From Candidatus Nanohalobium sp. (lineage in GTDB: Archaea; Nanohalarchaeota; Nanosalinia; Nanosalinales; Nanosalinaceae), in NCBI GenBank assembly GCA_042217545.1, contig JBDGSM010000046.1, positions 1 to 19,626 of the forward strand: a DNA stretch of 19,626 nt. The letters are read 5' to 3'. Positions 1 through 19,626 of the stretch are shown piece by piece. Made by a program: the position numbers and the translations under genes. Numbering within the stretch: position 1 is the first letter of the stretch; each line of letters opens with the position of its first letter. The notes below the pieces were generated by a model. It was not told the DNA's origin. It worked only from the letters and a program-made list of their open reading frames with translations, and ran no database searches.

Positions 1-1339
1 TGTGAGAACTGGAGGAAGTAGTTTGATCGGTTAAGTTGATTGCTGGTTCGCTGTTTGGCAGAGTAAGTGATTTCTTGGCACTTTTTCTCTTCACGCTGTC
101 AGTATCGTTGAAGATGAAGTAATAGTCTATCTTATCTGTTTCAGTGGAGCCATATCCAATATGGTCTAAAGACTTACTCAAAGAGGCATTACAGGCCTTC
201 TTTTGAGGGCCAGATACATTTTTCAAGGTCGCTGACCCAAGTTTCTTGTAGTTGTCCTTGTAATTTGGTTTGTAATAAACTTTGCAGCTAGAAAAGGAGG
301 CATCTCCGCTTGGATGCTCTGCAATTGCTGAAATATTGCTTTTATGCTTGTCATCATAGTTTTTTACATCTGTTGATGTTATATTAATCAACTTGTGGTT
401 TATTTCGTAAAAATCCAGCTTTGGAGTATCTGAGGAGTTGCTCGTGCCGAGATCAGCTGTTATCTTTATATATTGCGCATTTTCTAGGCCTGTAAGGTCG
501 ATAGTGTTTTTTCCATCTGCTAGGAGATAAGAAGTGGAGTCAAGCACATTTGATTTATCGTTTGAAACTTCTATATCTATGCTTATTTGTGTGTCGGTGT
601 TTATTGACTCTGTTCTGTAAGTTAAATTATGCCATGAGGCCTTCCTTCCTGTATTTATCCATCCTGTAGAATGAGTTCCTGAGCTCTTATACTCTGGAAG
701 GTAAACAGAGTAATCTTCCTGTTCATTGTAAGTGGTGTCTGTCGTCGGATCCATATGATAGCTACTGTATGCGCCTATTACCCTCATGATTGTGGACTCT
801 CCCATGTTGATGTCTTTTGGGACAGTTATCTGCTCGGAGACCACGCAGCCGTTTGTGCTGCAGTGACCTATTTTGTAGACGTTGTCGTCTGAAAGATCTT
901 CGTTATCGTTCCAATCGAATGCCACAGTAGCATACTCTCCGTATCCTCCTGTATGGAACCTGACGCTGATCTTATATGTATGGCCTGGCTTTAGAGAACT
1001 GGATTTTATATTTGTGGCGTCTAAATACCCTCCATTGTCGCCTGTAGAGTGAGATATGTCCTTTATTTCCACTTTGGTTATGTATTCTCCATAAGATGTG
1101 TCTCCTCCGCTTACATTGGCATATTTCCCTGCATCTACATTGTTGGCAGTTTTATTAACATAGCCAAGTTTTAAATTTCCTTTAGTGACTGTTACGTTAG
1201 TTAAGGAGCCTGATTTCCATTCTGTAGTGCTGTTTATGGTTTCTGATGTTGCTATTCCTGAACTGGACATAACTAAGGCTAGGAATATAAGGAAAAATGC
1301 TCGAAAGAGATAGTGGCTGTATTTATGATAGGATGACAT
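1..1339 (-). CDS. Secreted/surface glycoprotein with a GEVED-like domain (3'-truncated by the window edge)
   Basis: Manual translation from ATG at 1339 is open to position 2 (446 codons). It begins with a signal-peptide-like N-terminus (MSSYHKYSHYLFRAFFLIFLALVMSSSGIA). A GEVED-like segment lies at ~698-1087 (EYITKV..DNGGYLD..ATVAFDWNDNEDLSD..ITVP..MRV..NEQEDYSV). It is Ser/Thr/Asn-rich with 12 N-x-S/T sequons and two Cys pairs. Not in the ORF track because there is no stop inside the window. Confidence 0.85.
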   Translation of the reverse strand, partial: MSSYHKYSHYLFRAFFLIFLALVMSSSGIATSETINSTTEWKSGSLTNVTVTKGNLKLGYVNKTANNVDAGKYANVSGGDTSYGEYITKVEIKDISHSTGDNGGYLDATNIKSSSLKPGHTYKISVRFHTGGYGEYATVAFDWNDNEDLSDDNVYKIGHCSTNGCVVSEQITVPKDINMGESTIMRVIGAYSSYHMDPTTDTTYNEQEDYSVYLPEYKSSGTHSTGWINTGRKASWHNLTYRTESINTDTQISIDIEVSNDKSNVLDSTSYLLADGKNTIDLTGLENAQYIKITADLGTSNSSDTPKLDFYEINHKLINITSTDVKNYDDKHKSNISAIAEHPSGDASFSSCKVYYKPNYKDNYKKLGSATLKNVSGPQKKACNASLSKSLDHIGYGSTETDKIDYYFIFNDTDSVKRKSAKKSLTLPNSEPAINLTDQTTSSSSH

Positions 1340-1396
1340 TGATTATGGCTTCTCTTGACTAAGAATTTGAATTAGTTCATAATAAATGTTCAGCAA

Positions 1397-1876
1397 CTAC
1401 TTTCTAGTGTATTCCACAAAGTCGAAATCATCTCTTTCTTCTCTCTTAGTTTCTTCCCAGTTGTCTTCATCCCAGTTAGGGAAGAAAGTGTCTCCATCTA
1501 TTTCTCTATGTACTTCTGTTAAAATCATTTTATCTGCATCTTCCAGGGCCTCTTTGTAGATTGTTGCTCCTCCTATGATGAAGGCCTTGTTGTCGAGTTC
1601 TTCTGCTTTGTTGTAGGCCTCTTCGAGACTGTTCGCTGTTTTTACACTCTCGTCTTCTGGCCGAAAGTCGCTTCTCGTCAGTACTATGTTGGTTCTGCCG
1701 GGTAGAGGCCTTACTGGGTCAGGGAATGACTGGTATGTTTTTCTGCCCATTATGATGGGGTGTCCCATCGTGGTTTCTTTGAAGTGCTTCATGTCTTCGG
1801 GTATGTTCCAGGGTATGTCTCCGTTTTTTCCGATTGCGTTGTTTTCTGATACTGCTGCGATGATTATTTTCTCCAT
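1397..1876 (-). CDS. folA: Dihydrofolate reductase
   Basis: Canonical motifs: IIAAVSENNAIGKNGDIPW-IPEDMKHFK, IMGRKTY, PLPGRTNIVLTR, IIGGATIY, GDTFFP. Start placed at the ATG at 1876, 1 nt after the upstream stop. Confidence 0.97.
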   Translation of the reverse strand: MEKIIIAAVSENNAIGKNGDIPWNIPEDMKHFKETTMGHPIIMGRKTYQSFPDPVRPLPGRTNIVLTRSDFRPEDESVKTANSLEEAYNKAEELDNKAFIIGGATIYKEALEDADKMILTEVHREIDGDTFFPNWDEDNWEETKREERDDFDFVEYTRK

Positions 1877-1877
1877 G

Positions 1878-2660
1878 CTATCTTTCCTTGAATTCAAGCA
1901 GGTTCTGGAGGGTTTCGAAGTTTTCTGCGTGTTTAACTGCTCTCTGGAATTCCCGGATGCTTTCGAGATCGATCGAGTCCGGTTCGTAGAGTTCTCTGTC
2001 GCTGTACTTGTTCACCAGGCCTGCGGCTGTGAGTCCTGATAGTACGAGGCCTATCTCTTGGGCTCTGACGTCTTCGACTTTTTTCTTGAGGTCTCTGGTT
2101 CTGAAGTAGCTGTTTCTTTTTTCTTTTATTTCTTTGAGGCCTTCGTAGACGTTCTCTATGTTGTTTCTCAGTCTTCCGTATTCCTGTTCGCTCAGTTCCT
2201 TTATCTCCGGGTCGATTTCTGGTCTTTTACGTTCGGCTATGTCTCTCATCTTTCTGATGCTTTCTGCTGTGTTCTGGAACTGGTCTTTTTCCTCCGTTCT
2301 GTCTATGAACCTGGCGTAGAGGCCTTCCTCTTCTTCCTCTGGGTTTTCCTCGAGTACTTCTTCCGCTATCTCCTCTGGTTCCCTCGGCTGTGGTTCTGCT
2401 TCGAGTTCGTATCCGAGTCTTTCCCAGCCTGTTCCCTCGAGGAGGACTGCCTCCCAGGTCTTGGGGTTGTTTCCGGTTCTGATGACGTGGCTGGTTTCTT
2501 CTTTCTCTGTCATGTATTTGAGGGTTTTACCTACTTTCTGCGGGGTGTATCCCTCGAGTCTTTCGGCGATGTCTCCGCTCGTGAAGGATGAGGTCTCTTC
2601 TTGGGTGTAGGCCTCTATCTCGGGCAGCAGGTCCTCGTAGAATCGTTCCTCCCAGCTCAT
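1878..2660 (-). CDS. Hypothetical acidic protein with two winged-HTH-like repeats (possible DNA-binding protein)
   Basis: 260 aa. Two similar segments, FTSGDIAERLEGYTPQKVGKTLKYM..TW and FRTRDLKKKVEDVRAQEIGLVLSGLTAAGLV, joined by a Glu-rich linker. Abuts folA. Confidence 0.6.
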   Translation of the reverse strand: MSWEERFYEDLLPEIEAYTQEETSSFTSGDIAERLEGYTPQKVGKTLKYMTEKEETSHVIRTGNNPKTWEAVLLEGTGWERLGYELEAEPQPREPEEIAEEVLEENPEEEEEGLYARFIDRTEEKDQFQNTAESIRKMRDIAERKRPEIDPEIKELSEQEYGRLRNNIENVYEGLKEIKEKRNSYFRTRDLKKKVEDVRAQEIGLVLSGLTAAGLVNKYSDRELYEPDSIDLESIREFQRAVKHAENFETLQNLLEFKER

Positions 2661-2771
2661 CGTTTTTCCGTGGTCCTTTTGTTCGGGTATTGTTTCACGC
2701 GCGGTTTTCCCGGTTACTGGATGGTTTCGTTGTCCTGTAATTATTTAATACCTTGATTCTAATTAGTGCTT

Positions 2772-3458
2772 ATGATTCCCATCACGGCTATCGACCATTT
2801 CATCTGGGCAGGTCTTATCTTCCTGTCGTTTTACACTGTTTACAGAAAGTATCAGGAGAACCAGAACGAGATGCTGAAGAACTTCTACATGTTCTTCCTT
2901 GTCTGGTCAACAGGATTCTTTGGCCTGATGGCCTCCATGTTCACCTTGGGTGCTTACCTGGGTAACGACATGATCCTTTCGCTGGGATACGTGATACCTC
3001 ACATATTCGCGTTTGTATCGATAGGATATCTCTGGAAGGTCCAGAGCAGTATCAACTTCCCGAAGTACCAGAAGCTTTTCTGGGTTTTCGTCGGTTATGG
3101 GGTTCTGCTCGTCGGGTACGGGCTTCTGAACAGGCCTGATGTCGCTGTACAGGATGGAGTCGTGACTTACGGCGGTTCGATGTTCAGTTCGCTTATACCT
3201 CTTGGGATGACGGTCTCGGCAGTCCTTATCTCCGGAAGCAGTTTCTACTCCGCATACGTGACCAAGGGAGATACCAGAAGAAAACTTGTCCTGATAGGTA
3301 TCGGGACTATGTTGTCTCTCGTCTTTGGATCGATTTTCCATAACCTCGGTTACAAATTACTAGGTGAAGCGACAAATCTTGTATGGATCAGTATCTTCCT
3401 CGCGGTCACTCACTGGCAAATGCTTCAGGAAAAGCTCTCAGGCCTGAGAGGTGAGTAG
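2772..3458 (+). CDS. Stand-alone ~7-TM membrane protein resembling N-terminal 7TM sensor domains of histidine kinases
   Basis: About seven hydrophobic segments and no cytoplasmic catalytic domain. An RRKLVLIGIG motif precedes TM6. TATA-like TTATTTAATA at 2741-2750 favours a leaderless ATG at 2772. Family assignment is by pattern only. Confidence 0.6.
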   Translation: MIPITAIDHFIWAGLIFLSFYTVYRKYQENQNEMLKNFYMFFLVWSTGFFGLMASMFTLGAYLGNDMILSLGYVIPHIFAFVSIGYLWKVQSSINFPKYQKLFWVFVGYGVLLVGYGLLNRPDVAVQDGVVTYGGSMFSSLIPLGMTVSAVLISGSSFYSAYVTKGDTRRKLVLIGIGTMLSLVFGSIFHNLGYKLLGEATNLVWISIFLAVTHWQMLQEKLSGLRGE

Positions 3459-3776
3459 ATGGAGTACAAGGAGGTATTCGAGCAGATAATGGAAAAGGCT
3501 AACGGCATGGTGGGTGAGGTCGCGTACAGGCAGGCGGACCAGGTCGAAGGAGTGAACGTCTCTCAGGACGGTGAGGTCGAGGGAGAGATAGGAGGGAAAC
3601 AGGTACGTGAACTCGTGGAGAAATACAGCGATATAATGGGTGAAGGAGGATACGGAGTGGTCCGACAGTCCATAAAGGAGATATACGATGAGGACCAGTC
3701 CATAGCACAGCTGGAACTGCCTGACGAGGTCACCCCGAAAGAGGTAAGGGCCAGCCAGTTCGCCTCCGCGCTCTAG
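3459..3776 (+). CDS. Small acidic soluble protein, translationally coupled to the 7TM gene (possible signalling output domain)
   Basis: 105 aa. The ATG directly follows the upstream TAG and is preceded by a GAGGTGA Shine-Dalgarno sequence. Composition is halophile-like. Confidence 0.75.
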   Translation: MEYKEVFEQIMEKANGMVGEVAYRQADQVEGVNVSQDGEVEGEIGGKQVRELVEKYSDIMGEGGYGVVRQSIKEIYDEDQSIAQLELPDEVTPKEVRASQFASAL

Positions 3777-3786
3777 GAATCCCTTT

Positions 3787-4884
3787 TTATTCAGCCACCG
3801 AGAACTCGAGGCCTCCATGCGGATCATAGCCTTCCAGCTGGAAGTCCTCGTACTCCAGCTCGTCTATACTCTTCTCCGGCAGATGCATCTCAGGCCTTTC
3901 CTTAGGCTCCCTGGAGAGCTGTTTCAGCAGGTTTGGGACGTGATCGAAGTTCTCCTCGCCTTCCCTTTCATCCGGAGCCTCCTCTGCGATCCATTCTTTG
4001 ATGTCGAGGTAGTCTTCCCTGCTTGAGGCCTCTCTCATTTTCTTTTTCAGGGTTTCGAGGTTTTCGCTGTACCATTCTCCTCTCTCGTTCTTTCCGCAGT
4101 AGATGTGGCTGTCGACGATTGTATGTGAGAAGGTTCCTGGCTCGAAATCGGTCTGCTTCGCTATTATCTTTGTTATCAGTGCGTAGGCGGCGATGTTGAA
4201 CGGTATTCCCAGTGCGGTGTCGCCACTTCTTTGTGTCAGATGTGTGTTCAGTTTTCCGTCCTGTACGTTCATGACCCAGGTGAAGTGGCACGGTGGAAGC
4301 TTTGAGACTGCTGCGTTCGCCGGATGCCAGGCGTTGATGATGATTCTACGTGATTCAGGGCCTCTGTACGGGTGGTCGCCGTTCAGGGTGTCGATGGCGT
4401 ACTGTATCTGGTCGAAAGTTTTTCTCCCGTCCTCTTCCTCGTTGATCCAGCGTGAGATTCCTTCCCTGATTTCCTCTTCCTCCAGGTCGTACTGTTCCTC
4501 GGCTTTCTCCATCCATTCGTCCTGGTTGGTCGGCCACCACTCTCCTCTGAGAACGTCCTCGTCTTCTGGTATCGGGTAGCGGCGCCAGAAACGTCCGTAG
4601 GCGGTGGGTAGGAGGCCTTCGTCGTCGGCCCATGCGTTCCAGATCTTGGTGTGTTCTCTCAGGTTTTTGATGTGTTCTTCTCCTGTGAAGTACCATAGAA
4701 GTTCGTGGATGAGCGAGTTCCACCGGTAGCCGGAGAGGTCTTTCGTCGTGAGGAGAGGGAATCCTTCCTGAAGGTCGATCTTGTAGTGCTGTGAGAAGCT
4801 GGAGATCGTGTCCGCGTCTGTCCTGTTTTTCTTGTAGTTTCCGTCTTCGAGTATGTTTTTGACAAGCTGCTGGTACTGTTCCAA
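3787..4884 (-). CDS. thyA: Thymidylate synthase ThyA with two acidic insertions
   Basis: Motifs GFPLLTTK, ELLW, IWNAWAD, YG..WR, DQI, SRRIIINAW, LPPCH (catalytic Cys), QRSGD, GIPFNIAAYAL, DSHIY. TTG start with GGAGGGG upstream. Confidence 0.97.
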   Translation of the reverse strand: MEQYQQLVKNILEDGNYKKNRTDADTISSFSQHYKIDLQEGFPLLTTKDLSGYRWNSLIHELLWYFTGEEHIKNLREHTKIWNAWADDEGLLPTAYGRFWRRYPIPEDEDVLRGEWWPTNQDEWMEKAEEQYDLEEEEIREGISRWINEEEDGRKTFDQIQYAIDTLNGDHPYRGPESRRIIINAWHPANAAVSKLPPCHFTWVMNVQDGKLNTHLTQRSGDTALGIPFNIAAYALITKIIAKQTDFEPGTFSHTIVDSHIYCGKNERGEWYSENLETLKKKMREASSREDYLDIKEWIAEEAPDEREGEENFDHVPNLLKQLSREPKERPEMHLPEKSIDELEYEDFQLEGYDPHGGLEFSVAE

Positions 4885-4947
4885 AGAAGTTTTCCCCTCC
4901 TGGTTTCCAGTTCTGCCGAGAGAGTTTAATATCTTCGTGACTGGTGC

Positions 4948-5213
4948 ATGGCTATGAGGTTAAGGAGGGCGGCGCTTCAGACGTTTTCACTTGTTCCAGG
5001 CCTTGGTGCGGCGGTTTCTCTGTTCTTCTGGGTCTCTGTCGTGTTCGATCTAGGTGATCCGGCTCTTGATCGGGTCTGCCAGGGCCTTCTCTGACGCTTC
5101 CGGTGCTGGCGCTTGTGTTAGGGATCGTTGCGTGGAGGGTTTCTCCTGATCTGGATGATACTCTGAAGGGGGTCCTGGAGGCGCTGCTTGAGCCTGTTCT
5201 GAATCTCGGGTAG
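4948..5213 (+). pseudogene. Small 2-TM membrane protein gene with an apparent 1-bp frameshift (or sequencing error)
   Basis: ATG at 4948/4954 reads MRLRRAALQTFSLVPGLGAAVSLFFWVSVVFDLGDPAL and stops at 5092. The -1 frame from ~5070 reads SGLPGPSLTLPVLALVLGIVAWRVSPDLDDTLKGVLEALLEPVLNLG* (stop 5211-5213). A TATA-like TTTAAT lies at 4925. Confidence 0.5.
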
Positions 5214-5255
5214 GCGTTCCCTGAACTGTTAAACCTGGGGTTGTATTTACCGTAT

Positions 5256-5999
5256 GTGGAACTGCCCAGGATCTTCGAGTCCCGTGAGAAAGAGAAGAAG
5301 GTGCTGAAGTACACAGCGGTCCTTTTGGCGGTCTTCGTGGTCGGCTATTTCGTCACGCAGCCCTATCATGGATTGCTTTTTGACGTTGAGAGGATGAGGG
5401 ATTTCATCGAGAGCTTCGGACCTCTTGGACCGCTCGTATTGATAGCTCTTCAGGCCTCTCAGGTAATTATAGCGCCTGTTCCTGGCCCGGTGGTCGGTGC
5501 AGCAGCAGGGTATGCCTTCGGAGTTCTATGGGGTACAGTCTACGGGTTCATAGGCCTGGCTATAGGCAGTTCTATAGCCATTATACTTGCAAAGATGTAC
5601 GGTAGGCCTTTCGTTGAGGACGTTATCGCTGATGATACGATGGATAAGTTTGACGATCTTGCGGATGAGCACGGCTTCCTGCCGTTCTTCCTGATGTTCC
5701 TGTTACCGGGTTTTCCGGACGACGCGATATGCTTCATAGCAGGCCTTACAGATATAGACACGAAGAAGCTACTTCTTATGGCGAGCTTCGGACGTTTGCC
5801 AGGCCTTTTATCTCTTACAGTTGTGGGGAACAGTCTTGCACTTGGCAACATGAAAATTATGGCTGTAACAATGGTTATCGTGCTGGCTGTCAGTACTGGC
5901 GCCTGGTACGTCAGGGAGTCGGTCGTTCGGCCGGGAGAAAATATCAGGAATCCTGTCTCGGCGGTGAAGAGGAAGGCAGGTTCCTGGCTAGAGAACTGA
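5256..5999 (+). CDS. TVP38/TMEM64 (DedA/VTT superfamily) membrane protein
   Basis: Motifs FGPLGPLVLIALQASQVIIAPVPG, GYAFGVLWG, YGRPFVE, LLPGFPDDAICFIAGLT, GRLPG. GTG start at 5256 is assumed. Confidence 0.9.
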   Translation: MELPRIFESREKEKKVLKYTAVLLAVFVVGYFVTQPYHGLLFDVERMRDFIESFGPLGPLVLIALQASQVIIAPVPGPVVGAAAGYAFGVLWGTVYGFIGLAIGSSIAIILAKMYGRPFVEDVIADDTMDKFDDLADEHGFLPFFLMFLLPGFPDDAICFIAGLTDIDTKKLLLMASFGRLPGLLSLTVVGNSLALGNMKIMAVTMVIVLAVSTGAWYVRESVVRPGENIRNPVSAVKRKAGSWLEN

Positions 6000-6065
6000 T
6001 CAGGCAGACTGTTGTGACTAACCCTACCTACACTTTTAAAGTTGGTTAAGTGGTTCCTCTCTGTG

Positions 6066-6782: not shown

Positions 6783-6788
6783 GGTTTT

Positions 6789-7507
6789 TCACATGGTTCG
6801 AGGCCTGAGGCATCCTATGAGGTGGAGGCTGCCGGTCACGAGTATCGTTTCGCCGGGTTCGGCATCGGACTTCGCGGCTTCCAGGGCGTTCTCCGGTCGT
6901 TCGAAGGTTTCCGAGTCTTTGGTTGATTCTTTCTGCAGGTTCTCTGGTTCTTCTGAGGCCCATTCGACATCTGATCTGGTGAAGTAGAACTTGGAGGCCT
7001 TGTTTTCAAGTGTTTGTATCATCTGGTGGTGTCTTTTCTTTTTTGAGGCGTTGAAGACGCATCTGAACTGGTCTGGCAGCTCTTCCAGGATTTTTTCTGT
7101 TGCTGAGGGGTTGTGGGCTCCGTCATGGCTGTGAGGGATTCGAAGAACGAAAGTTCCTGGTCCAGCGCCTCTATCCTTCTGTAAAGCTTCGGGAAATCCT
7201 TCCTGTCGATCATCGCCCCGTCCTTCTTTATCCGTTCCCTGACGCTGTGTATGTGGGGTGATCTGAAGGTCCCCGTGGAGTAACCTTTCTGCTGGAGCAG
7301 GGCCGAGATCATCTCCACAGTGGAGCCCTTCCCGTTCGTACCTCCGACCAGTACTACGTCAAGATCCCTCTGAGGCCTTCCGAGGAGGTGCAGGGCTTCC
7401 GCTGTCCTCTCCTTCGCGGGCCTTTTACCTTTTGAACGACGTGATTCCAGGTCCTCGACGGCGTTTCTGTACTGCTGCTGAACGCTTTCTGCAGTTTTTC
7501 TCTTCAT
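6789..7507 (-). pseudogene. folC: Folylpolyglutamate/dihydrofolate synthase with a large internal deletion and frameshift
   Basis: The N-terminal 128 codons carry VGGTNGKGST, FRSPH, RERI and SFFESLTAM. They join at ~7124, in another frame, to the C-terminal domain DGAHNP...ILVTGSLHLIG (stop 6789). The central E-x-G-x-GGRLDATN and DH...EKAGI region is absent. Confidence 0.88.
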
Positions 7508-8833: not shown

Positions 8834-9967
8834 TCAGTTCACGTCCTCAAGCACAAAACCCTCAGAGAAACCGCCTCTATCCTCTTTTTTCTCCTCTCTA
8901 ACTTCCTCTAACTTTTCACGCGAAAGGCCTTCATTTTCGATATAGGCGTCAACTACTTCCAGAAGATCGGCAAGCTCCTCGACATCCCTGTCTTCCTCAA
9001 ACTCTTCTGCTTCCTCCACGACTTTCTCCCCCAGGAACTTCTCCAGTTCAGCGCCTTCAACTTCACTGATCTTCGCTTCCTCACCGTTCTCCTCTATGAT
9101 CTCTGGAATCCTGTCACGAACAAGTTTCGGAAGCTCCTGCTGTTCTCTCCACTCCTGATGCGCCTTTTTCAGGCCTTCCCTGAGTTCGTCATGCATAGGA
9201 AGATCATCCAGCTTCGAAACTTCCACCCACCGGAAATCAGTGTGCTCATTCCCCAGCTCGATCTCGAGGCCTTCAGGTTCACAGAGAAACGTGGTCCCGA
9301 AGACCTGCTCCCCGCTGTCACGCATAAAGGTCCAGGAAGTAACAGGGTCCACGACTTCTGCCTCAAGGCCTGCCTCCTCCATTACTTCTCTTTTCAGGCC
9401 TTCCTGAGGTGTTTCCCCGTAGTCAAATCTTCCGCCGGGTACATCCCACAGGTTCTCCAGATGCGTCTCCTCTCCCGAACGCTTGATTACAAGAATTTTG
9501 CCTTTCCTGTCGACGATAACAGCTTTTCCAGCAGCTCTGAAAGTTTTTCTGTCCTCCAGGAACTTTCTGAACGCTTTCTCAAGGCCTCCTATCAACTCGT
9601 ACTCTGTAAACTCTTCAGGCCTTATCCAGGCGAATTCATCGTGATCACTGGAAAGCTGGGCTTCTGAGGTCCCTGTTCTCGCTCTAAAGTAGGTTCCTAC
9701 TATCTGCCATTTCTCCCCTTTCACTTCAGGCCTCCACTCGTCCGTGAAGAACGGTTCCCCGGTCTCTGCTTCAAGGCCTGTTTCTTCCAGCATCTCTCTT
9801 TCCAGGCTCTCCCTGAAATGCTGCCCTGGTTCGATCCTTCCTCCAGGAACATCCCATTTTCCGGCGTTAGCTCCTTCTTCGTACTCGGCGGACTCTTTAA
9901 GCAGCAGAACTTCCCCTTCCTGGTTTTCCACGAAGGCCTTGGTCGCTGTAAAGGTTTTATCTGTCAT
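8834..9967 (-). CDS. Nudix-Nudix-MazG-like (all-alpha NTP pyrophosphatase) fusion protein
   Basis: Two Nudix boxes, WDVPGGRIEPGQ..REMLEETGL and WDVPGGRFDYGE..REVMEEAGL. The C-terminal part KLVRDRIPEII..KVVEEAEEF..EELADLLEVV..K...RGGF is typical of the COG4997 house-cleaning NTP-PPase. Confidence 0.9.
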   Translation of the reverse strand: MTDKTFTATKAFVENQEGEVLLLKESAEYEEGANAGKWDVPGGRIEPGQHFRESLEREMLEETGLEAETGEPFFTDEWRPEVKGEKWQIVGTYFRARTGTSEAQLSSDHDEFAWIRPEEFTEYELIGGLEKAFRKFLEDRKTFRAAGKAVIVDRKGKILVIKRSGEETHLENLWDVPGGRFDYGETPQEGLKREVMEEAGLEAEVVDPVTSWTFMRDSGEQVFGTTFLCEPEGLEIELGNEHTDFRWVEVSKLDDLPMHDELREGLKKAHQEWREQQELPKLVRDRIPEIIEENGEEAKISEVEGAELEKFLGEKVVEEAEEFEEDRDVEELADLLEVVDAYIENEGLSREKLEEVREEKKEDRGGFSEGFVLEDVN

Positions 9968-9970
9968 TTT

Positions 9971-10615
9971 CTATCTGTCTCCGAGCATTTCGATTATGAT
10001 CTGCAGTATCTCGACGAATACTCCCATGTAGGCGATGTAGATGCCGATAGCGTTCATAATTACTCTTCCAGGCCTCTTTTTCATCCTCCAGAGTTCGTAG
10101 ACGAGGTATACGAGGAATCCTGCCAGTACGAGGATGAATGTTAACAAGAGCAACGGTGTGAGAGCACTGCCTATAAGGCCTGTTACGAATGCGGAGATGA
10201 AGAGGTAGTTAGAGTATTTTCCCCATTTTCTGAAGCTCCTGCTCGTTCCGTAGACCAGTAGCGCTGCTGCTACAGCTATAACTGTCGTGACCACGGCGGT
10301 TATCCCCAGTACGATCGGGAAAAATCTTGGCGGGACGAAGGAGAGGATTCCACCTCCGAACACTCCGTATGTGAGCTGGAGCAGCGTGAGTCCCAGGCCT
10401 GCGAGGCCTGTGTGGTCCTGCTTCATCCCTTTTTTGGCCAGGGATCTTCCCAGTGCTAGGCCTGCCCCGAAGATTATCATGCCGATTATAGGTACAGTGA
10501 ACAGAAGGCCTGTGATGCCTGCGAGTGGTGTTACTGCTACTACAGCCATTACTGCGATATTGAGTAGTATAAGGCCTGTGCTGAGCGCGATGCTTTTCAG
10601 TTCGTTTGAGTTCAT
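9971..10615 (-). CDS. Bax inhibitor-1/YccA (TMBIM)-like membrane protein
   Basis: About 7 TM segments. The C-terminal LVYE...AIGIYIAYMGVFVEILQII pattern parallels the BI-1 'ilYD...Al.LYlDfinlF..lL.il' motif. Confidence 0.6.
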   Translation of the reverse strand: MNSNELKSIALSTGLILLNIAVMAVVAVTPLAGITGLLFTVPIIGMIIFGAGLALGRSLAKKGMKQDHTGLAGLGLTLLQLTYGVFGGGILSFVPPRFFPIVLGITAVVTTVIAVAAALLVYGTSRSFRKWGKYSNYLFISAFVTGLIGSALTPLLLLTFILVLAGFLVYLVYELWRMKKRPGRVIMNAIGIYIAYMGVFVEILQIIIEMLGDR

Positions 10616-11423: not shown

Positions 11424-11512
11424 AGGCCTCGGAAAAAAACATTTTCTGTACCAATCATGCCTTCAAAGTGGCAAATTCTTTTTATATGAGGTAAGACCTC
11501 TTGTAATTGACG

Positions 11513-13046: not shown

Positions 13047-13694
13047 ATGCTCCCGGAGGAAGATGTCGAGGCCCTGAAGGAAAAGCTGGAGGAGGTTTTC
13101 TCTGATTACTACGAGCTTGCGGGAGGTAAGAACTTCCGGTATCATCACCTTGTGAGGACGCATCGCTATGTGAAGAAGATGATGGAGCGTGAGGAGCTTG
13201 AAGGCCTTGACTTCGATCCTGACGTGGTGGAGGTTGCGGCTCTTTTCCACGATATCGGGAGGAAAGCAGATATCGAGGACGGTTATCTCGATCCGATGGA
13301 TGAGAACAGGGAGCACGCTCCGAGAGGAGCTGATATGGTTTCCGGTTATGTTGAAGGCTTTCTCAGCGAGGATCAGGTAGAGAAAGTTGAAGAGGTTATC
13401 CGCAACCATCATTCCGAGGCGGAGACAGTTGAGGGGATGATTGTTCAGGACTGTGACGCGCTTTCGAATTTCGGGGTTAACAATCTCTGGCGGATGATCC
13501 ATTACAGTGCGGAGAAGGAAAGAACGATCGAGGAAAGTTTTGATTACTTCTGGGATCAGGCCCTGGATCAGTACCGCAGGAAACTTCAGGGTTTCAACCT
13601 TGAAGCCTCGAGGATGGTTGCGAAGAAGAGGATCGTGAAGCATCAGGAAGCGATGCTGGAGATGGAAGAGGAAGTCCGCGGAGACGACATCTGA
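13047..13694 (+). CDS. HD-domain metal-dependent phosphohydrolase
   Basis: H..R (YHHLVR), AALFHDIG, EHAPRGA, IRNHH, VQDCDAL. Confidence 0.9.
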   Translation: MLPEEDVEALKEKLEEVFSDYYELAGGKNFRYHHLVRTHRYVKKMMEREELEGLDFDPDVVEVAALFHDIGRKADIEDGYLDPMDENREHAPRGADMVSGYVEGFLSEDQVEKVEEVIRNHHSEAETVEGMIVQDCDALSNFGVNNLWRMIHYSAEKERTIEESFDYFWDQALDQYRRKLQGFNLEASRMVAKKRIVKHQEAMLEMEEEVRGDDI

Positions 13695-13729
13695 GAAACT
13701 CTTTTCAACAAGGCCGGGTAATTTCCAGT

Positions 13730-14431
13730 ATGGATTCTGAAAAGGCGAAGAAGTTCGAAAGGCACAGGAAGGAGATGGAGAAGATGGCCTTCCTGAACGT
13801 CACAGTCATCCTCCTGTATCTTGCAGGCATAGGCCTTTACCTTGGAGGTTTCAAGAACCAGTTCCTCTTGCTGCTTCTGGCGGCTCCGCCTACTGTGATT
13901 GTCAGCGGCATGTTCGTACTGGCCATAATCTTTCTCTGGGCGTTGCCCGTTATGCATTACCGGGAGGAGAGAAGAGCAGTTACGAACAAGGACATGGATT
14001 ACTACCGGGGGAGAGATCTGGCCGATGAGCCGACGATCGAAATACTTGAAGAACAGGGCTGGAAGGAAGTTGACTCCGAAAACAACCGCGTGGTGTTGGA
14101 AACCTTCGTAAGCCCGTTCCACAGACTTATAGGCAGGAAGACAACGCTGATAATGGAGAAAGAGGAGGAAGGTGAAAACTCGGAGACCTACATCCTTAAA
14201 ACAAGGAAGAACGAGATCAACAGGACAAAGACAACATACCACGAGAGAAACGGAGAAACCATAATAACGGAAACCACGGTCTCACTTGATAGAGTATCCC
14301 CGATCTACCTGGAGATCACAATGTTCCTCGAACCAGACATAGAAGACCTTATAGAGGACCTCTCTGAAGAAGACCTTAAAGTAACTGATGAACACGTCGA
14401 TGTCGGCATCAGGAGATATGAACTCGAATAA
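13730..14431 (+). CDS. Hypothetical membrane protein (two N-terminal TM segments, acidic soluble C-terminus)
   Basis: 233-aa ORF with halophile-like composition. No recognisable motif. Confidence 0.7.
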   Translation: MDSEKAKKFERHRKEMEKMAFLNVTVILLYLAGIGLYLGGFKNQFLLLLLAAPPTVIVSGMFVLAIIFLWALPVMHYREERRAVTNKDMDYYRGRDLADEPTIEILEEQGWKEVDSENNRVVLETFVSPFHRLIGRKTTLIMEKEEEGENSETYILKTRKNEINRTKTTYHERNGETIITETTVSLDRVSPIYLEITMFLEPDIEDLIEDLSEEDLKVTDEHVDVGIRRYELE

Positions 14432-14508
14432 TATTACCGGATAACCTGCAGAAGGCCTTTAGAAACGCTCAGATGGTATCTGGAAAAAATTAAAGGGGGA
14501 GAAAGTTG

Positions 14509-14598
14509 TCAGTCTTCTTTGTTTTCCAGCATGCTAAGCGGTATGTACATCGCGATGAAGGTCGCTACTAGTATCGTTATGAAAAAACCTGTATTCAT
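14509..14598 (-). CDS. 29-aa single-TM small protein
   Basis: MNTGFFITILVATFIAMYIPLSMLENKED*. GAGGTGA SD lies just upstream, there is an ATGA overlap with the upstream ORF stop, and a T-rich tract follows. Absent from the ORF track, presumably too short. Confidence 0.6.
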   Translation of the reverse strand: MNTGFFITILVATFIAMYIPLSMLENKED

Positions 14599-14759
14599 CT
14601 TTTCACCTCATGGAGACTCCTTCCTAATCTCTGATTAGGTAGTGGGTAGTTGACGTCGATAGCAGGAAGCCCTAGCACCAACCTGTGAAGTATATATACA
14701 ACTGTCACCGCTATAGCACCTATAAAACTTATCTCGCCGGGATTCATAGAATTTGCCAT
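14595..14759 (-). CDS. 54-aa small protein with one hydrophobic segment
   Basis: MANSMNPGEISFIGAIAVTVVYILHRLVLGLPAIDVNYPLPNQRLGRSLHEVKR*. GGGAG lies upstream of the ATG at 14759, with TATA-like TTATAAA at ~14791-14797. Confidence 0.45.
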   Translation of the reverse strand: MANSMNPGEISFIGAIAVTVVYILHRLVLGLPAIDVNYPLPNQRLGRSLHEVKR

Positions 14760-14883
14760 TGTTATCTCCCACTTAAACATTACAAGTCACTTTATAACTC
14801 GATTATTACAATCCTCGATAACATTGAAGCCTAACACAACTCAAAAACTATCAAAAAACATAGATAAATCCGTAAAGGCCTTC

Positions 14884-14899
14884 AAAAAAACAAGAAAAA
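14884..14899 (-). terminator. Archaeal oligo-T terminator of tRNA-Pro
   Basis: TTTTTCTTGTTTTTTT on the minus strand, immediately 3' of the tRNA. Confidence 0.7.
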
Positions 14900-14900
14900 G

Positions 14901-14973
14901 TGGCAGGGCCGAGATTTGAACTCGGGTCTACACGCCCCCAGCGTGCAATGATGGTCCACTACACTACCCCGCC
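14901..14973 (-). tRNA. tRNA-Pro(GGG), no intron, CCA not encoded
   Basis: Sequence GGCGGGGTAGTGTAGTGGACCATCATTGCACGCTGGGGGCGTGTAGACCCGAGTTCAAATCTCGGCCCTGCCA. Acceptor GGCGGGG/CCCTGCC, anticodon arm GCACG-CT[GGG]GG-CGTGT, T arm CCGAG-TTCAAAT-CTCGG, discriminator A. Confidence 0.95.
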
Positions 14974-15113
14974 GAAAATCGGAGATTTTCTGTGGGCACA
15001 GAAACTCCTGAAGGAGTTTCGCACCCCGCCAATTCCCGTAGCAATTGGGAGTACGAAGGGCTCCAGCAGGTGCCGGAGCTGCACGCAAGAATCCATGCTG
15101 CGCATGGCTTGCG
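14974..15113 (-). repeat. Array of abutting/overlapping short inverted repeats directly upstream of tRNA-Pro (possible structured leader or ncRNA)
   Basis: Stems at 14974-14990, 14987-15004, 15001-15020, 15029-15048, 15060-15079 and 15084-15113. Mismatches resolve as G-U pairs on the minus strand. Confidence 0.75.
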
Positions 15114-15176
15114 AATAGACATGCAGTACAGTTTAGGCCTTGTGCTGAGAAATTTTAAACCTGAACTTTCAGGTCT

Positions 15177-17072
15177 TCAGTCCTTGAACTCGGATTTTCC
15201 TGGCGGCAGAGATCTTATGATGTAGTCAAGTTTCAGTTCCTTGCTTAACCGGGACTGGATGGTCTTCGCCAGCTCCGATTTCTTGGTGTGGCCAGGCCTC
15301 AGGTTGATGTAGTTGTCGCAGTGCTCTCTTATCGCGTTTTCCGGTCCGCACATCGAAACTTTGTGATCTTCTATCTCGTAAATGCCGATCGAGGCCTCTA
15401 CTGACATGTTTCTCATGTATTCTCTGTCGCCTCTGATGACGAAGGCTCCTTTCTGGAGGTACTCTCCTGACTCAGGCTCTTCAGTTACCTGTTCTGGGTC
15501 GACGTAGTAGACGTCGTCGGCGCCGATGCCAGCCTTCCAGGTCTTTGCGAACGTGACAGCGGCCTTCGCAGCCTCCTCTCGCGTCGCCTCCCCGCATTCC
15601 TGCCCTTCCTTGACAACGACGCTGGGCGCACCGTCAAAGTCCGCGTGAAAGTACAGGTCGTTGCTTTCCATGTGCTTGTTGACCAGCATATCATTGGTCT
15701 GGGCGTCTCTACCGCAGAGAACCAGGAAGTCCTCGGATGAACGGAACCAGCGATACTTCTCGAACCACTCCTTGTCCCGCTTCTCCGTCTTGTCCTCCAT
15801 CACTTCATCCAGCTCGATATCCTCCTCTTCCAGCTCTGCAAGCTCCTCTTCAGTCTCCTCCAGGGCCTTTTCCACGGAATCGATCTTCGACTCCGAATTC
15901 TTCGCCTTATCATAGTAACGGGAGGCGATAGCCTCCAGGTTATCGTCCAGAGTCAACTTGATACTTTTTCCATCAACTGTTACAGATACGAACTCGTTCT
16001 GCTCGTTAAGAGAGTTTATACGGTCCGTTAATTCTCTCTCCGACTCCTGCAGCATCTCCTCGGTCTCCTTCCATCCATGCTTTTCCACACCTTTCTTCAC
16101 TGCTTCCTGAATCTCCTCCAGGAGCTGATAGTTCTCGTAGACAAGCTCTGCCTTCTCCCTGTTCTGCTCCGCGGACTTCTTCAGGCCTTCCTTCTTCCGC
16201 TCCTGCTGCTCAAGCTGGCGTTCAAGGCCTTCCTTCCTCTCCCTGTAGGCCTCACGTTTCTCCCTCTCCTCTTTTCGCTGCTCCTTCCTGTAGAAGAACT
16301 CGTCCAGTGCTTCAGAGAACTTCTCGAACTCCTCGCTGTCGTATTCTTCGTAGGTCTGTAGTGGGAACGGTGTGGCTCGCTCCATTTTCTCTCCATCCCT
16401 GTAAAGCACCGGTTCAGGCCTTTCCGCGGATTCAAAGATCTCTCTGATCTCCTCGTCTATCCTCTCCTTTTCTTCCTCGCCCAGTTCGGAGATCTCGGTA
16501 TTTTTATCGATCTCAGCTCTGGCGCAGATCTCTTCCGCGTACGTGCCTCCGAGCCTGAGGCCTGCCGCGATCTCTCTTACGATTTCGCCTTCGCCCAGGT
16601 TTTTCACAAAGCTTTCAAGGCCTCTGGGGTCTTCTGCCGGTTCCGGGTACTTGTATTCGTTTCCGACCCTGATCTCCCTGTCCGCCCATTCCTCCTCTCT
16701 GAGGGCTCCGATTATCTTGTCGTCTTTCAGGAGGATGAAGTTTCCTTTTCCGAAAATCTCGCATATCAGTGTGTGTTCTCCGCTCTCTATCTCCAGGATG
16801 CGGTCGAATCCTTTCTGTTCTATAGAATCTACTCGGGAAAGGTGCTTCCTAAGCTCCATGCAGAAGCCCGGCGGCTTCATAGGGTTGTCACGCTTGTACT
16901 TCGAGATGAAAGCGTGGTTCGTCCCGATTATCAGGCGTTTTTTTCCCTCTCCATGAACGTAGATTTCCAGGGTTAGTTCCTGGCCTCTCTGGTAGACTTT
17001 CTGGATATGGCCTTCCTCCAGCTCCTTGAATTCTTCTTCGAGGATTGAAAGATCCAGGCTTGTCAGTTCCAT
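15177..17072 (-). CDS. rqcH: Ribosome quality-control protein RqcH/Rqc2 (NFACT, FbpA-like)
   Basis: N-terminal IQKVYQ, PPGFCMELRKHL, Q.GFDRI, EIFGKGN, GGTYAEEIC. A coiled coil follows, then NFACT-R (WFEKYRWFRSS, GRDAQTND, FHAD..GAP, VTEEPESGEYL.KGAFVIRG). Confidence 0.95.
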   Translation of the reverse strand: MELTSLDLSILEEEFKELEEGHIQKVYQRGQELTLEIYVHGEGKKRLIIGTNHAFISKYKRDNPMKPPGFCMELRKHLSRVDSIEQKGFDRILEIESGEHTLICEIFGKGNFILLKDDKIIGALREEEWADREIRVGNEYKYPEPAEDPRGLESFVKNLGEGEIVREIAAGLRLGGTYAEEICARAEIDKNTEISELGEEEKERIDEEIREIFESAERPEPVLYRDGEKMERATPFPLQTYEEYDSEEFEKFSEALDEFFYRKEQRKEEREKREAYRERKEGLERQLEQQERKKEGLKKSAEQNREKAELVYENYQLLEEIQEAVKKGVEKHGWKETEEMLQESERELTDRINSLNEQNEFVSVTVDGKSIKLTLDDNLEAIASRYYDKAKNSESKIDSVEKALEETEEELAELEEEDIELDEVMEDKTEKRDKEWFEKYRWFRSSEDFLVLCGRDAQTNDMLVNKHMESNDLYFHADFDGAPSVVVKEGQECGEATREEAAKAAVTFAKTWKAGIGADDVYYVDPEQVTEEPESGEYLQKGAFVIRGDREYMRNMSVEASIGIYEIEDHKVSMCGPENAIREHCDNYINLRPGHTKKSELAKTIQSRLSKELKLDYIIRSLPPGKSEFKD

Positions 17073-17158
17073 AGAAAGGCCTTGTAACTTGAAAAGTTAA
17101 AATAGGGTGACTGGTGCAGGTTGGTGCAGAATATTCACACTTCTTGAACATAGAAGAG

Positions 17159-17166
17159 TTTATAAT
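17159..17166 (+). promoter_or_regulatory. Putative TATA box for nrdA
   Basis: TTTATAAT preceded by a purine-rich BRE-like AGAAGAG. It lies upstream of the NrdR-like box. Assignment to nrdA is inference. Confidence 0.4.
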
Positions 17167-17222
17167 GAAGGCATTCCAAAACAGAATTGCGTACGAGATA
17201 TCTGGGGGAGGGAATTCATCGC

Positions 17223-17238
17223 CCACAACATGTAGTGG
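17223..17238. promoter_or_regulatory. NrdR-box-like palindromic operator
   Basis: CCACAACATGTAGTGG matches the bacterial consensus acaCwAtATaTwGtgt at all upper-case positions. It lies 110 bp upstream of nrdA. A weaker copy may exist at ~17193-17208. Confidence 0.7.
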
Positions 17239-17348
17239 GTCTCTCTAATCGTCTATCCCCAGCTATACCTTAGAGGCCTGTTTCAGGCCTTTACTGGATA
17301 AACAGTAGCTAGCTGCAGCTATATCGCAGTATAACGGTGTTATATAAG

Positions 17349-19626
17349 ATGACGGATCAGAAAAGTGTTGGAAAGAGCCCGGAGTCTGAAAGCTCCCTAA
17401 AACCCAAGCAAATATTCGGAAATGCGTTCCAGGACCTGGATCCTGAGATCGGTATCGAAGATCTAATAGATCAGGCGGATTCACAGCTTTATGCTGGGGC
17501 GTCCCAGGAGGAACGTTTCGAGGCCTGTATCCAGGCAGCGACGTCACATATCGATCGGGATCCTGCTATGAAGAAGGTAGCTGCTGATATTTTCCTTCAG
17601 AAGTACTACAGAGAAGTTATCGGTGATTTCGATTCAGCTAGCTTCGAGGAAAAGTACAGAGAGGTTTTCGCTAGGAACATCCGCAGAATGGTGTCCGAAG
17701 AGATTCTCGACGAGAGGATGCTCACATATGATCTCGAGAAGCTGGCGGAGGAGATCAGGCCTGAAAGAGACCAGCTATTTGACTACATGGCGCTCGATAC
17801 CCTTTACCAGCGTTACTTCCTGAAGAAGGAGGATGAAAGACTTGAACTGCCTCAGGCCTTCTGGATGCGGGTTGCTATGGGTGTTGCGCTTCAGGAACCT
17901 GTTGCCAACAGGCAGGAAAGAGCTTCAGAGTTTTACGAGAAGCTTTCAAAGCTAAAGTTCGTGCATTCGACTCCTACGCTCTTCCACGCCGGTACGACCC
18001 ATCCGCAGCTATCTTCCTGTTATCTGACGACTGTGAGCGATGACCTTGAACATATCTTTGATTCCTACCAGGATCACGCGATGCTTTCGAAATGGAGCGG
18101 AGGCCTCGGAAACGACTGGACGAACGTCAGGGCTGAAGGTGCGCTGATAGAGTCCACAGGCGTCGAATCGACAGGTATAGTACCTTTTCTGAAGATCTCA
18201 AACGATGTAACGCACGCTATCAACCGAAGTGGAAAGAGGAGAGGTGCTGCATGCGCCTACCTCGAGGCCTGGCACCTTGACTTCCCTGACTTCCTTGATC
18301 TCAAGAGGAACACCGGAGATGAGAGAAGGAGAACTCACGATATGAACACTGCGGCCTGGGTTCCGGACCTCTTCATGAAAAGAGTCGAAAAAGACGAGGA
18401 ATGGACTTTCTTCTCACCCGACGAGGTTCCAGAGCTCCATGGCATCTACGGCCAGGAGTTCGAGGAAAAATACAGGAAGTACGAGGAGAAGGCCGAGAAC
18501 GGGGAGCTCAGACAGTACGAGAAAGTGGATGCGAAAGAGCTGTGGCGGAACATGCTCACCAGGCTGTTCGAAACCGGTCATCCATGGATCACTTTCAAGG
18601 ATCCATGCAACATCAGAAGCCCTCAGGATCACGAAGGCACGATCCACTCATCCAACCTGTGTACAGAGATCACGCTGAACACCAGTGAGGACGAACATGC
18701 TGTATGCAACCTTGGAAGCGTCAACCTTGCAGAACACGTCGATGAGGAAGGCCTCAAGGCTGAGGAGCTGAAGGATACTGTCTCGACAGCTATGCGGATG
18801 CTTGACAACGTCATAGATCTATGTTTCTACCCTACAGAGGAAGCCGAGAACAGCAACATGAGGCACAGGCCTGTAGGCCTTGGAGTGATGGGGTTCCACG
18901 ACGCGCTGATCAAGCAGAGGATCCCTATGGATTCGGAGGAAGCTCTGGAGTTTGCTGACATGTCTCAGGAGTTCATTGCGTATCATGCGATTATGAACTC
19001 GTCGAAGCTGGCTGAGGAACGTGGAAGTTACGAGTCGTTTGAAGGCAGCAAGTGGGACCGGGATATCCTTCCGCAGGACTCGCTGGATCTCCTTGAAGAG
19101 GAGAGAGGCCGTGAAATACCTCTTCCAAGAGAAGAGCGTCTGGAATGGGATCAGGTCAGGAAACATATCCAGGAACACGGCATGAGGAACTCCAACGTCA
19201 TGGCTGTAGCCCCGACTGCCACAATTTCTACGATCTCCGGAGTTTCCCCGAGTATAGAGCCGCGCTACAGTAATCTTTACGTCAAATCCAATATGAGCGG
19301 TGACTTCACGATTATAAACGATTACCTGGTCGAGGATCTGAAGGAGGAAGGCCTCTGGGAGGAGAAGACTGTTGAGCAGATTAAGGCCTCCGATGGATCT
19401 ATCCAGGAGATCGACAGGATTCCAGAGGAAATCAAAGATCTGCATAAGGGAGCGTTCGAGATCGATCCAAGACATCAGTTGAAATTAACTGCTCACAGGA
19501 TGCAGTGGATAGATCAGTCTGTGTCTCACAACGTTTTCTTCCCTTCAACTGATGGAACCAAGCTGGATTCAGTTTACAAGACTGCGTGGGAGTACGGTCT
19601 GAAGACGACCTACTACCTGCGTTCAC
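17349..19626 (+). CDS. nrdA: Class I ribonucleoside-diphosphate reductase alpha subunit (3'-truncated by the window edge)
   Basis: Manual translation from ATG at 17349 is open to the end. Motifs: ELPQAFWMRVAMG, STPTLFHAG, PQLSSCYL, SKWSGGLG, KRRGAACAYLEAWH, TGDERRR, ETGHPW, SSNLCTEI (active-site N-x-C-x-E), VCNLGS, RPVGLGVMG, APTATIS, WIDQSVS, GLKTTYYLR (class I YY dyad). Not in the ORF track. Confidence 0.97.
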   Translation, partial: MTDQKSVGKSPESESSLKPKQIFGNAFQDLDPEIGIEDLIDQADSQLYAGASQEERFEACIQAATSHIDRDPAMKKVAADIFLQKYYREVIGDFDSASFEEKYREVFARNIRRMVSEEILDERMLTYDLEKLAEEIRPERDQLFDYMALDTLYQRYFLKKEDERLELPQAFWMRVAMGVALQEPVANRQERASEFYEKLSKLKFVHSTPTLFHAGTTHPQLSSCYLTTVSDDLEHIFDSYQDHAMLSKWSGGLGNDWTNVRAEGALIESTGVESTGIVPFLKISNDVTHAINRSGKRRGAACAYLEAWHLDFPDFLDLKRNTGDERRRTHDMNTAAWVPDLFMKRVEKDEEWTFFSPDEVPELHGIYGQEFEEKYRKYEEKAENGELRQYEKVDAKELWRNMLTRLFETGHPWITFKDPCNIRSPQDHEGTIHSSNLCTEITLNTSEDEHAVCNLGSVNLAEHVDEEGLKAEELKDTVSTAMRMLDNVIDLCFYPTEEAENSNMRHRPVGLGVMGFHDALIKQRIPMDSEEALEFADMSQEFIAYHAIMNSSKLAEERGSYESFEGSKWDRDILPQDSLDLLEEERGREIPLPREERLEWDQVRKHIQEHGMRNSNVMAVAPTATISTISGVSPSIEPRYSNLYVKSNMSGDFTIINDYLVEDLKEEGLWEEKTVEQIKASDGSIQEIDRIPEEIKDLHKGAFEIDPRHQLKLTAHRMQWIDQSVSHNVFFPSTDGTKLDSVYKTAWEYGLKTTYYLRS

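Follow-up and report, generated by a model that had tools for sequence, protein, structure and literature searches.

AGGCCT is a highly iterated palindrome of one nanohaloarchaeal family and a candidate binding site of a DNA-wrapping chromatin complex

Why some genomes accumulate one short palindrome has been a question since the highly iterated palindrome HIP1 was described three decades ago. HIP1 (GCGATCGC) and the alternate cyanobacterial palindromes are reported to be hyper-abundant in all reading frames and in spacers (PMC4390886, PMC5861425, PMC13756078), to be conserved between genomes beyond control words and to be patchily distributed among relatives, and their function is debated. 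HIP1 occurs about once per kilobase (PMC4390886), and CAGGCCTG, which contains an AGGCCT core, reaches 0.37 per kb at an observed/expected ratio (O/E) of 14.7 in Synechococcus PCC 6312 (Xu et al. 2018, PMC5861425). Here, we describe the hexamer AGGCCT in a stretch of 19,626 nucleotides from Candidatus Nanohalobium sp. (GenBank assembly GCA_042217545.1, contig JBDGSM010000046.1, positions 1 to 19,626; hereafter the window) and in the genomes of its relatives. By its behaviour, AGGCCT is a highly iterated palindrome, which resembles HIP1 but is not HIP1: it is another sequence, a hexamer in an archaeal host, its density is 3.6–4.0 per kb, about ten times that given for CAGGCCTG in Synechococcus PCC 6312, and it has no cognate methylase and no significant 10–100 kb periodicity of its site density. 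No published report of an AGGCCT excess in archaea or Nanohaloarchaea, and none on the motif AGAGGCCTCT and nucleosomes, was found, where subscription papers and supplements could hold a mention, and the main text of Reva 2023 (PMC10266531) contains no GGCC, its methylation profiling being for SVXNc only.

The uptake signal sequence (USS) of Pasteurellaceae and the DNA uptake sequence (DUS) of Neisseria are likewise present in thousands of copies with doubled tripeptides, as far as described in PMC3458573 and PMC2817400; they are rare in newly acquired genes, and next to their GC-rich core lie T-rich stretches in phase with the DNA helix. Unlike AGGCCT, which is a 6-bp palindrome, they have cores of 9–12 bp, the T-tracts of USS lie on one side only, and their bacterial hosts have known uptake machinery. 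Archaeal nucleosomes are described as protecting about 60 bp; their centres are GC-rich, and A/T (WW) dinucleotides are offset by 5 bp from G/C (SS) dinucleotides (PMC3691661). In G000 and G003, the two genomes examined most closely below, AGGCCT appears to share with this code the 10-bp A/T periodicity offset by 5 bp from a GC-rich centre, the span of about ±35 bp (PMC3691661, PMC6136690) and the site-poor rDNA. However, the nucleosome code is reported as a diffuse preference for dinucleotides in which no one hexamer stands out, whereas AGGCCT has a 20- to 50-fold advantage. In Thermococcus, intergenic DNA is avoided by nucleosomes (PMC3691661), whereas the density of AGGCCT in spacers (4.2 per kb) equals that in genes. 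Dcm/Vsr repair also leaves a sequence-specific compositional footprint, but no methylase or Vsr accompanies AGGCCT, and the depletion around it spans more than one transition.

The preliminary description of the window had counted about 86 copies by hand, and the exact number is 86, all between 193 and 19389, at a density of 4.4 per kb. In 200 dinucleotide shuffles of the window, the mean was 6.09 (6.1 ± 2.4) and the maximum 12, and none of the 200 reached 86; the excess is about 14-fold by this null and, as first estimated, about 18-fold by base composition. Most GGCC tetramers had been described as flanked by A and T, and 86 of the 129 in the window lie within AGGCCT. The genome of the window (G000; 1.03 Mb in 82 contigs, 92% complete, the window being contig C41) encodes acidic proteins, and AGGCCT is its top hexamer, with 3,699 sites at 1.3–5.9 per kb on all 82 contigs, which shows that the excess is genome-wide and not an artefact of one contig. 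The O/E is 15.1, 13.0 and 5.1 by the order-0, order-1 and order-2 models, respectively, where the pooled order-2 model is itself inflated by the motif, and the value of 5.1 lies below the cut-off of 16 used by Xu et al., which was made for octamers. In a second rich genome, the single-contig G003, the O/E is 19.6 by base composition. AGGCCT makes up 58% of the GGCC tetramers in G000, and CGATCG occurs there at an O/E of 0.99.

A codon-pair, peptide, RNA-structure or hairpin-repeat effect would be one conceivable source of such an excess, as AGG, CCT, GGC and GCC are frequent codons. The coding/intergenic splits in G000 depend on our own self-trained gene calls (1,190 genes). In the window, 78 copies lie in called genes and 8 outside; 16 are read as Arg-Pro, 18 as [EKQ]-Ala-x and 44 as x-Gly-Leu, and 18 of the 20 genes of annotated size contain at least one copy, whereas that at 3459–3776 contains none. 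The presence in nearly every gene and the use of all three frames, both claimed at the outset, hold. In G000, the coding sites number 544, 1,068 and 1,574 by phase against 99, 167 and 219 after synonymous shuffling, and the 112.6 kb of intergenic DNA contain 473 sites, where 21–68 are expected. The excess over synonymous shuffles is 6.5- and 8.0-fold in G000 and G003 in all frames, the intergenic O/E is 17 and 28, and the excess is present in both gene orientations. No inverted symmetry beyond AGGCCT, either as a quasi-palindrome or as a hairpin extension, was found around the sites, and no 14-mer is repeated in more than four copies in the spacers. The intergenic excess and the frame independence refute a codon or RNA effect, in agreement with the original argument that codon or amino-acid bias is insufficient, and this whole group of explanations has a negligible probability.

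The hexamer takes up about four in five of the positions where it can be silently placed. In G000, the use of silent opportunities is 76% for Arg-Pro, 79% for [EKQ]-Ala-[FYCW] and 87% for [EK]-Gly-Leu; it is 83–85% in G003, 15–33% in G046, which has an intermediate number of sites, and 4–6% in the poor genome G021. The tripeptide [EKQ]A[FYWCS] occurs at an O/E of 1.8 and 2.2 against 0.9 in G021, [EK]GL occurs at 2.0, and [DN]GL at 0.5 against 0.8 in G021; the AGGCCT pressure has altered the proteome. Occupancy is unchanged in the most conserved genes (0.79 and 0.82), and it is 0.78 (n = 49 opportunities) in the gene cluster at 40–54 kb of G003, which is read as a ribosomal-protein operon. The rRNA genes have 3 sites in 4.4 kb and the tRNA genes 1 site in 3.6 kb, and low-GC islands are without AGGCCT. 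The conservation in orthologs that had been proposed as a check was found between G003 and G023 (68 kb of the latter covered): in 61 genes, 120 of 255 sites are common (0.47), compared with 0–0.19 for 13 control hexamers. Silent changes account for only 29 of the 135 site differences, while 4-fold sites diverge by 52–62%. Along G003, the site density has a peak at 52 kb (P 0.11 and 0.22), which is not significant by a method that differs from that of Xu et al.; the occupancy residual has a peak near 97 kb above 100 permutations, and the islands could produce the same peak.

The excess is specific to one lineage, as had been suspected. Among the 70 genomes of the phylum, 12 are rich (1,481–4,489 sites), G046 is intermediate (762 sites in 0.8 Mb) and the 57 others have 32–892 sites. 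The rich genomes are confined to four genera of one family, and one genus, g2, contains two rich and four poor genomes. In a tree of RpoA' (50 rows; G028 excluded, G004 and G066 without the whole gene), the trait needs four changes, or three when G046 is not scored, all of them within a subclade of 26 genomes with moderate support. G046 is the sister of the rich G047. In the 287 kb of about 0.8 Mb from which its neighbour and peptide data come, G046 retains the peptide signature and has an excess of transition neighbours of the site (AGGTCT 25 against 11.5 and 29 against 10.3 expected; AAGCCT 24 against 11.8), which indicates decay after the force had lapsed. The sites of G046 therefore read as decaying by ordinary transitions. 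No motif remnants were seen in the poor genomes within the clade (0.376 against 0.394 outside it).

In other archaea, 80 loci among the matches listed have a median O/E of 0.6, with a maximum of 3.5 among the long loci. No viral contig with an acidic proteome and at least 2 sites per kb over long flanks was found in three sets of pattern loci (at least 122, of which 80 had flanks, then 62 and 17) or among 79 ribonucleotide reductase loci, which does not show that such viruses are absent; a search of a phage collection returned no match. Seven viral contigs (L461, L446, L429, L470, L457, L467 and L484), which were chosen for containing sites, have 35–37% GC and mostly basic proteins, and their flanks carry AGGCCT 8- to 14-fold over expectation. 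These are possibly phages of an unrelated host that shares the hexamer bias.

The one-mismatch neighbours show what the force acts on. At silent opportunities, AGGCCT exceeds all 21 classes of one-off neighbours, with ln odds of 1.9–3.8 in G000 and 1.2–4.6 in G003. Its advantage is weakest over AGGCCC/GGGCCT, a pattern like that of a graded binding motif. The low number of AGGCTT/AAGCCT sites had been taken to fit biased repair at the second C, and the window counts are as reported (AAGCCT and AGGCTT together 4, AGACCT and AGGTCT together 16); once the codon context is controlled, the depletion is not specific, since the ln odds are 3.1 and 2.4 for AGGCTT/AAGCCT, 3.7 for the transversion AGGCAT and 3.3–3.8 for AGGACT. 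Repair of a single mismatch would raise the transversion neighbours along with the site by mutation balance, yet they are depleted, so that the force acts on the whole word. We infer that it protects or favours AGGCCT as such, with AGGCCC/GGGCCT as a weak variant. As a side observation, the preferred flanks are C then T in G003 and T in G000, and the extended motif thus drifts between lineages.

These results bear on the first mechanism to have been proposed, an orphan GGCC/AGGCCT methylase with Vsr-like very-short-patch repair at one cytosine, which would by now have been lost or be supplied by the host. The transversion neighbours, which single-mismatch repair would leave as common as the site, are depleted as strongly. 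AGGCCT is the target of StuI-type restriction-modification; genomes usually avoid restriction sites, and G021 does so for GGCC, whereas AGGCCT is enriched. That the same hexamer can be a methylase target is known from an AGGCCT-specific restriction-modification system reported in Alcanivorax (PMC12128166), and a gene could be missing from G000, which is 92% complete. However, among the 50 genomes of the family, C5 methylases are found in 1 of the 12 rich genomes against 15 of the 38 others; N4/N6 methylases are found in 1 of 12 rich genomes, and Dam-type methylases and Vsr in none of the five rich genomes searched. G000 has no C5 methylase, and its sole N6/N4 match reads as a Trm11-like tRNA enzyme. 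The single-contig rich genomes G001, G003, G019 and G058 have no C5, Dam-type or Vsr gene, and three of the four have no N4/N6 gene; the only methylase of G003 is a type I HsdM-like enzyme inside a site-poor island. No cognate orphan DNA methyltransferase for AGGCCT was thus found in the methylase searches of the rich genomes, and none of the genes that had been suggested for checking, a methyltransferase, Vsr or EndoMS, is co-distributed with the trait in the genomes searched. In the poor genome G021, a C5 methylase with an adjoining gene lies at L154:491-2386; GGCC is avoided in this genome (0.44), and ACGT even more so (0.22). By its motif, this enzyme is probably of the GGCC type; it belongs to the only relative inspected that has such an enzyme, and that relative avoids the tetramer. 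The methylase mechanism is accordingly very improbable.

Neighbouring sites are not independent of each other. In G000, 339 gaps are shorter than 50 bp where 606 are expected. The pooled occupancy with a neighbouring site at 12–28 bp is 0.57–0.70 against 0.76–0.79 expected and is normal from 29 bp, and the pair density at 12–28 bp is 0.56 and 0.64 of the background. The best-fit exclusion step is 29 bp for the pooled data, 28 bp for G003 and 43 bp for G000, and seven control palindromes, with small counts, show no consistent short-range pair deficit. The low occupancy near another site indicates partial redundancy of two sites within about 30–45 bp, which a protein footprint or a repair patch would produce. 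Separately, pairs exactly 12 bp apart, inside the excluded range, are in local excess, with 17 in G000 and 26 in G003 against about 5 at adjacent distances.

The repair patch leads to a second repair mechanism, which needs no methylase: a nicking or repair protein that recognises the site would copy from the AGGCCT strand along some 30 bp around it, so that errors creating a site are fixed and errors destroying it are reverted, the sites being functionless as in the model of Elhai but with a different strand mark. Such a ratchet accounts for the stickiness of the site in all directions and for the local saturation, and under the Elhai model, as presented in PMC4390886, the ratchet should stop working where another site is close. 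EndoMS/NucS, a possible agent, is found in 5 of 5 genomes searched, but in rich and poor genomes alike, and no strand mark or co-distributed nuclease was found. In G003, GGTC/GACC (0.42) and ACCC/GGGT (0.37) are depleted and the first-position variant GGGCCT is enriched (2.8), where the GGTC depletion and the GGGCCT enrichment would speak for the ratchet; the GGTC depletion is absent in G000. Synonymous divergence is not lower beside conserved sites (0.56–0.62 at 4-fold sites within 20 bp against 0.52–0.61 farther away), a comparison with low power near saturation. The 10-bp-phased flanks described below are not predicted by the ratchet, which we regard as quite unlikely.

The silent positions around AGGCCT are rich in A/T at about 5.5, 15, 25 and 35 bp from its centre. 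The 10.0-bp A/T cosine amplitude is −0.109 in G000 and −0.094 in G003, compared with −0.051 and −0.056 for matched WSSSSW words, and the gene-bootstrap difference from these controls is −0.058 ± 0.014 and −0.038 ± 0.014, fading past 37 bp. Among the dinucleotides, TA peaks at 5 bp from the centre (1.4 and 2.2), AA at 6 bp (1.9) and TT at 14–15, 23–24 and 33 bp. Neither this phasing nor the exclusion of 30–45 bp is described in the passages on HIP1 that were consulted. By analogy, the flank phasing appears to be the geometry of archaeal nucleosomes; it says that the DNA is bent around the site, and it does not name the protein. A 10.0-bp silent-site A/T periodicity is also present over the whole of G000, G003 and G021, which is a sign of histone-wrapped DNA across the family.

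On these grounds, AGGCCT is tentatively read as a site that selection maintains for the binding of a chromatin complex, two-fold symmetric, able to wrap DNA and probably built on histones, with a probability of roughly 0.45. AGGCCT would form the centre of the site of an abundant, two-fold symmetric complex that bends or wraps DNA, and the observed odds of about 20- to 50-fold in favour of each site over its neighbours would reflect selection. One complex would cover about 30–45 bp, and a second site inside this footprint would add little and not be favoured. The flanks, modestly enriched in A/T every 10 bp, would be tuned as in wrapped DNA. The simplest candidate for the reader would be the histone chromatin of the cell, either through a lineage-specific variant of histone 1 or through a histone-loading or barrier factor, with the GC-rich palindrome placed at the dyad of the tetramer. 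When the preference lapses, the sites would decay by ordinary transitions, as seen in G046. The chromosome-organising protein site, one of the candidates listed from the window, is now the best supported of that list, which also included the methylase and an uptake mark.

Histone matches are present in 27 of 27 genomes searched, with 2–5 in each, and G000 has three canonical paralogues and one short histone. Column 47 of histone 1 aligns with L46 of HMfB, which is described as a residue of the dimer–dimer interface (PMC6136690). Tyr occupies this column in 9 of 10 rich genomes, in G046 and in 2 of the 15 poor ones (G002 and G047 have no match for this paralogue), and none of the 407 variable RpoA' columns splits rich and poor genomes as cleanly. 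Histone 1 retains the His and Asp at HMfB positions 49 and 59, and its dimer–dimer interface thus reads as intact. Tyr47 is a lead that may point to the reader, not evidence of cause. A bolder form of the histone reading, in which the histone complex would read one hexamer at the dyad, selection would have rewritten the genome and its proteins as a nucleosome-address code with one AGGCCT per about 270 bp, and one or two substitutions at the histone dimer–dimer interface would switch the code between sister lineages, is unlikely.

Several observations weigh against the chromatin reading. The step at 29 bp is only 2.6 log-likelihood units better than an exponential decay, and G000 prefers 43 bp. 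In the poor G021, all WSSSSW words are phased at −0.082, so that 10-bp phasing is a family-wide background, and, compared with other single words, AGGCCT comes only 4th of 30 and 9th of 22 in its phasing. The excess phasing is absent in the partial G023 (−0.014 ± 0.057, 183 sites), the value for G046 is −0.030 ± 0.049, and the sign is reversed in small loci from the remaining rich genomes sampled (+0.125 ± 0.049, 173 sites); unused opportunities in G000 are almost equally phased (−0.084 ± 0.022), and the distances between sites have little 10-bp phase. Histone-1 column 47 was chosen post hoc, with only three independent pairs (sign test p 0.25–1); G022 is rich but has Phe, and the poor G005 and G014 have Tyr. 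The histone residues that likely contact DNA are the same in the rich and poor groups, and we know of no precedent for histones reading a specific hexamer. No binding protein was identified in the searches for candidate readers. Finally, the Haemophilus uptake sequence is reported to be likewise flanked by helically phased T-tracts (PMC3458573).

The gene-content comparison covered the 81 genes of G003 that are common to G000 and absent from G021, of which 69 were scanned against Pfam and 7 profiled in other genomes; none of the 7 tracks the trait. A further 329 genes occur only in G003, and 395 genes of G021 are missing from both rich genomes. A SWIM protein (18 of 50 family genomes), a small winged-helix protein (38 of 50) and a 218-aa protein of no assigned family (30 of 50) do not track the trait; PolB2 is present in the poor G056 and G061 and not in the rich G019, and a second SbcC-like ATPase and a 196-aa protein of no assigned family are each found in 0 of 5 genomes. 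A 55-aa short histone (G003 L059:17918-18082 and homologues) is often 95–100% identical between genomes, has two matches in several g21 genomes, and has PDB 9F2C as its closest solved relative; its presence in 45 of 50 family genomes sets it aside as a trait-tracking gene. The uncalled short open reading frames of G003 contain no reader candidate, and a Pfam scan of 150 of the 292 small shared proteins gave no lead.

The phased T-tracts of USS also belong to the case for an uptake or recombination drive, in which a surface receptor or a recombination enzyme prefers DNA containing AGGCCT, and variants that create the site are recombined in, as with the USS of Pasteurellaceae, the DUS of Neisseria and the current proposal for HIP1. 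Such a drive would favour AGGCCT over all its neighbours; the tripeptides are about doubled here, as reported for USS (PMC2817400), and the low-GC islands lack sites. HIP1 is reported to raise transformation (Kamoku and Nielsen, bioRxiv 10.1101/2024.09.10.611283) and to co-vary with pilus and competence genes (PMC13756078). Homologous recombination itself is suggested by the window: at 2888–3029, a co-occurring strain (runs X1 and X2) departs from the window at about 25 positions over 140 bp of a gene that is nearly identical elsewhere, a patch that suggests a short homologous recombination tract; its ends are not at AGGCCT sites. On the other hand, ComEC and DprA are each found in 0 of 5 genomes (three rich, two poor), where other archaeal import systems were not searched by family, and a giant VirB4/HerA-type surface ATPase, tried as a candidate and rejected, is present in only 15 of 50 genomes (6 of the 12 rich genomes and 9 of the 38 others). 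The HIP1 effect is described in the preprint of Kamoku and Nielsen as mostly methylation-dependent, and no methylase tracks the AGGCCT trait. A density of 3.6–4.0 per kb with a 30-bp exclusion would also be finer than kilobase uptake fragments require. The uptake drive is somewhat unlikely as the source of the excess.

Within the window, the 86 dispersed copies (193..19389, by exact count and gene calls) include those outside genes. All seven positions that had been called intergenic are non-coding, and an eighth was found at 4998..5003, between thyA (3787–4884, − strand) and a VTT-domain gene (5256–5999, + strand). The copy at 11424..11429 lies immediately 3' of the stop codon of the thymidylate kinase gene, and another non-coding copy is at 14453..14458. 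The copy at 14876..14881 lies 19 bases off the tRNA-Pro gene (14900–14973, − strand), which itself has no site, and that at 15135..15140 lies between tRNA-Pro and an NFACT (Rqc2-like) gene. Three copies (17077, 17274 and 17285; 17077..17290) lie in the spacer that separates the divergent NFACT and ribonucleotide reductase genes, where 17274 and 17285 form one of the few AGGCCT pairs less than 29 bp apart. The site-densest stretch is 8834..10615 on the − strand, with 10 copies in a double-NUDIX gene and 7 in a Bax1-I-family gene. The window contig is matched almost letter for letter by long contigs of runs X1 and X2, which are possibly its source. At 6789–7507 (− strand), beside glyA, thyA and folA, two short open reading frames have no Pfam match; by their motifs, they look like the N- and C-terminal ends of what is presumably a folylpolyglutamate synthase (FolC)-like gene with its middle absent.

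The present results place the phenomenon of one iterated palindrome in another domain of life, at about four times the density of HIP1 and without the methylases that one main model of HIP1 needs. Since close relatives with genomes of 1 Mb have the trait, lack it or are losing it, the family supplies natural controls. The exclusion distance and the phased flanks lead to a physical prediction, namely a particle of about 30–70 bp centred on the site. For the analysis of these organisms, the finding has a practical bearing on studies of codon bias and selection in AGGCCT-rich genomes. If histones are the reader, this lineage would have a positioning code that is sequence-specific and so strong that it alters the amino acids of its proteins.

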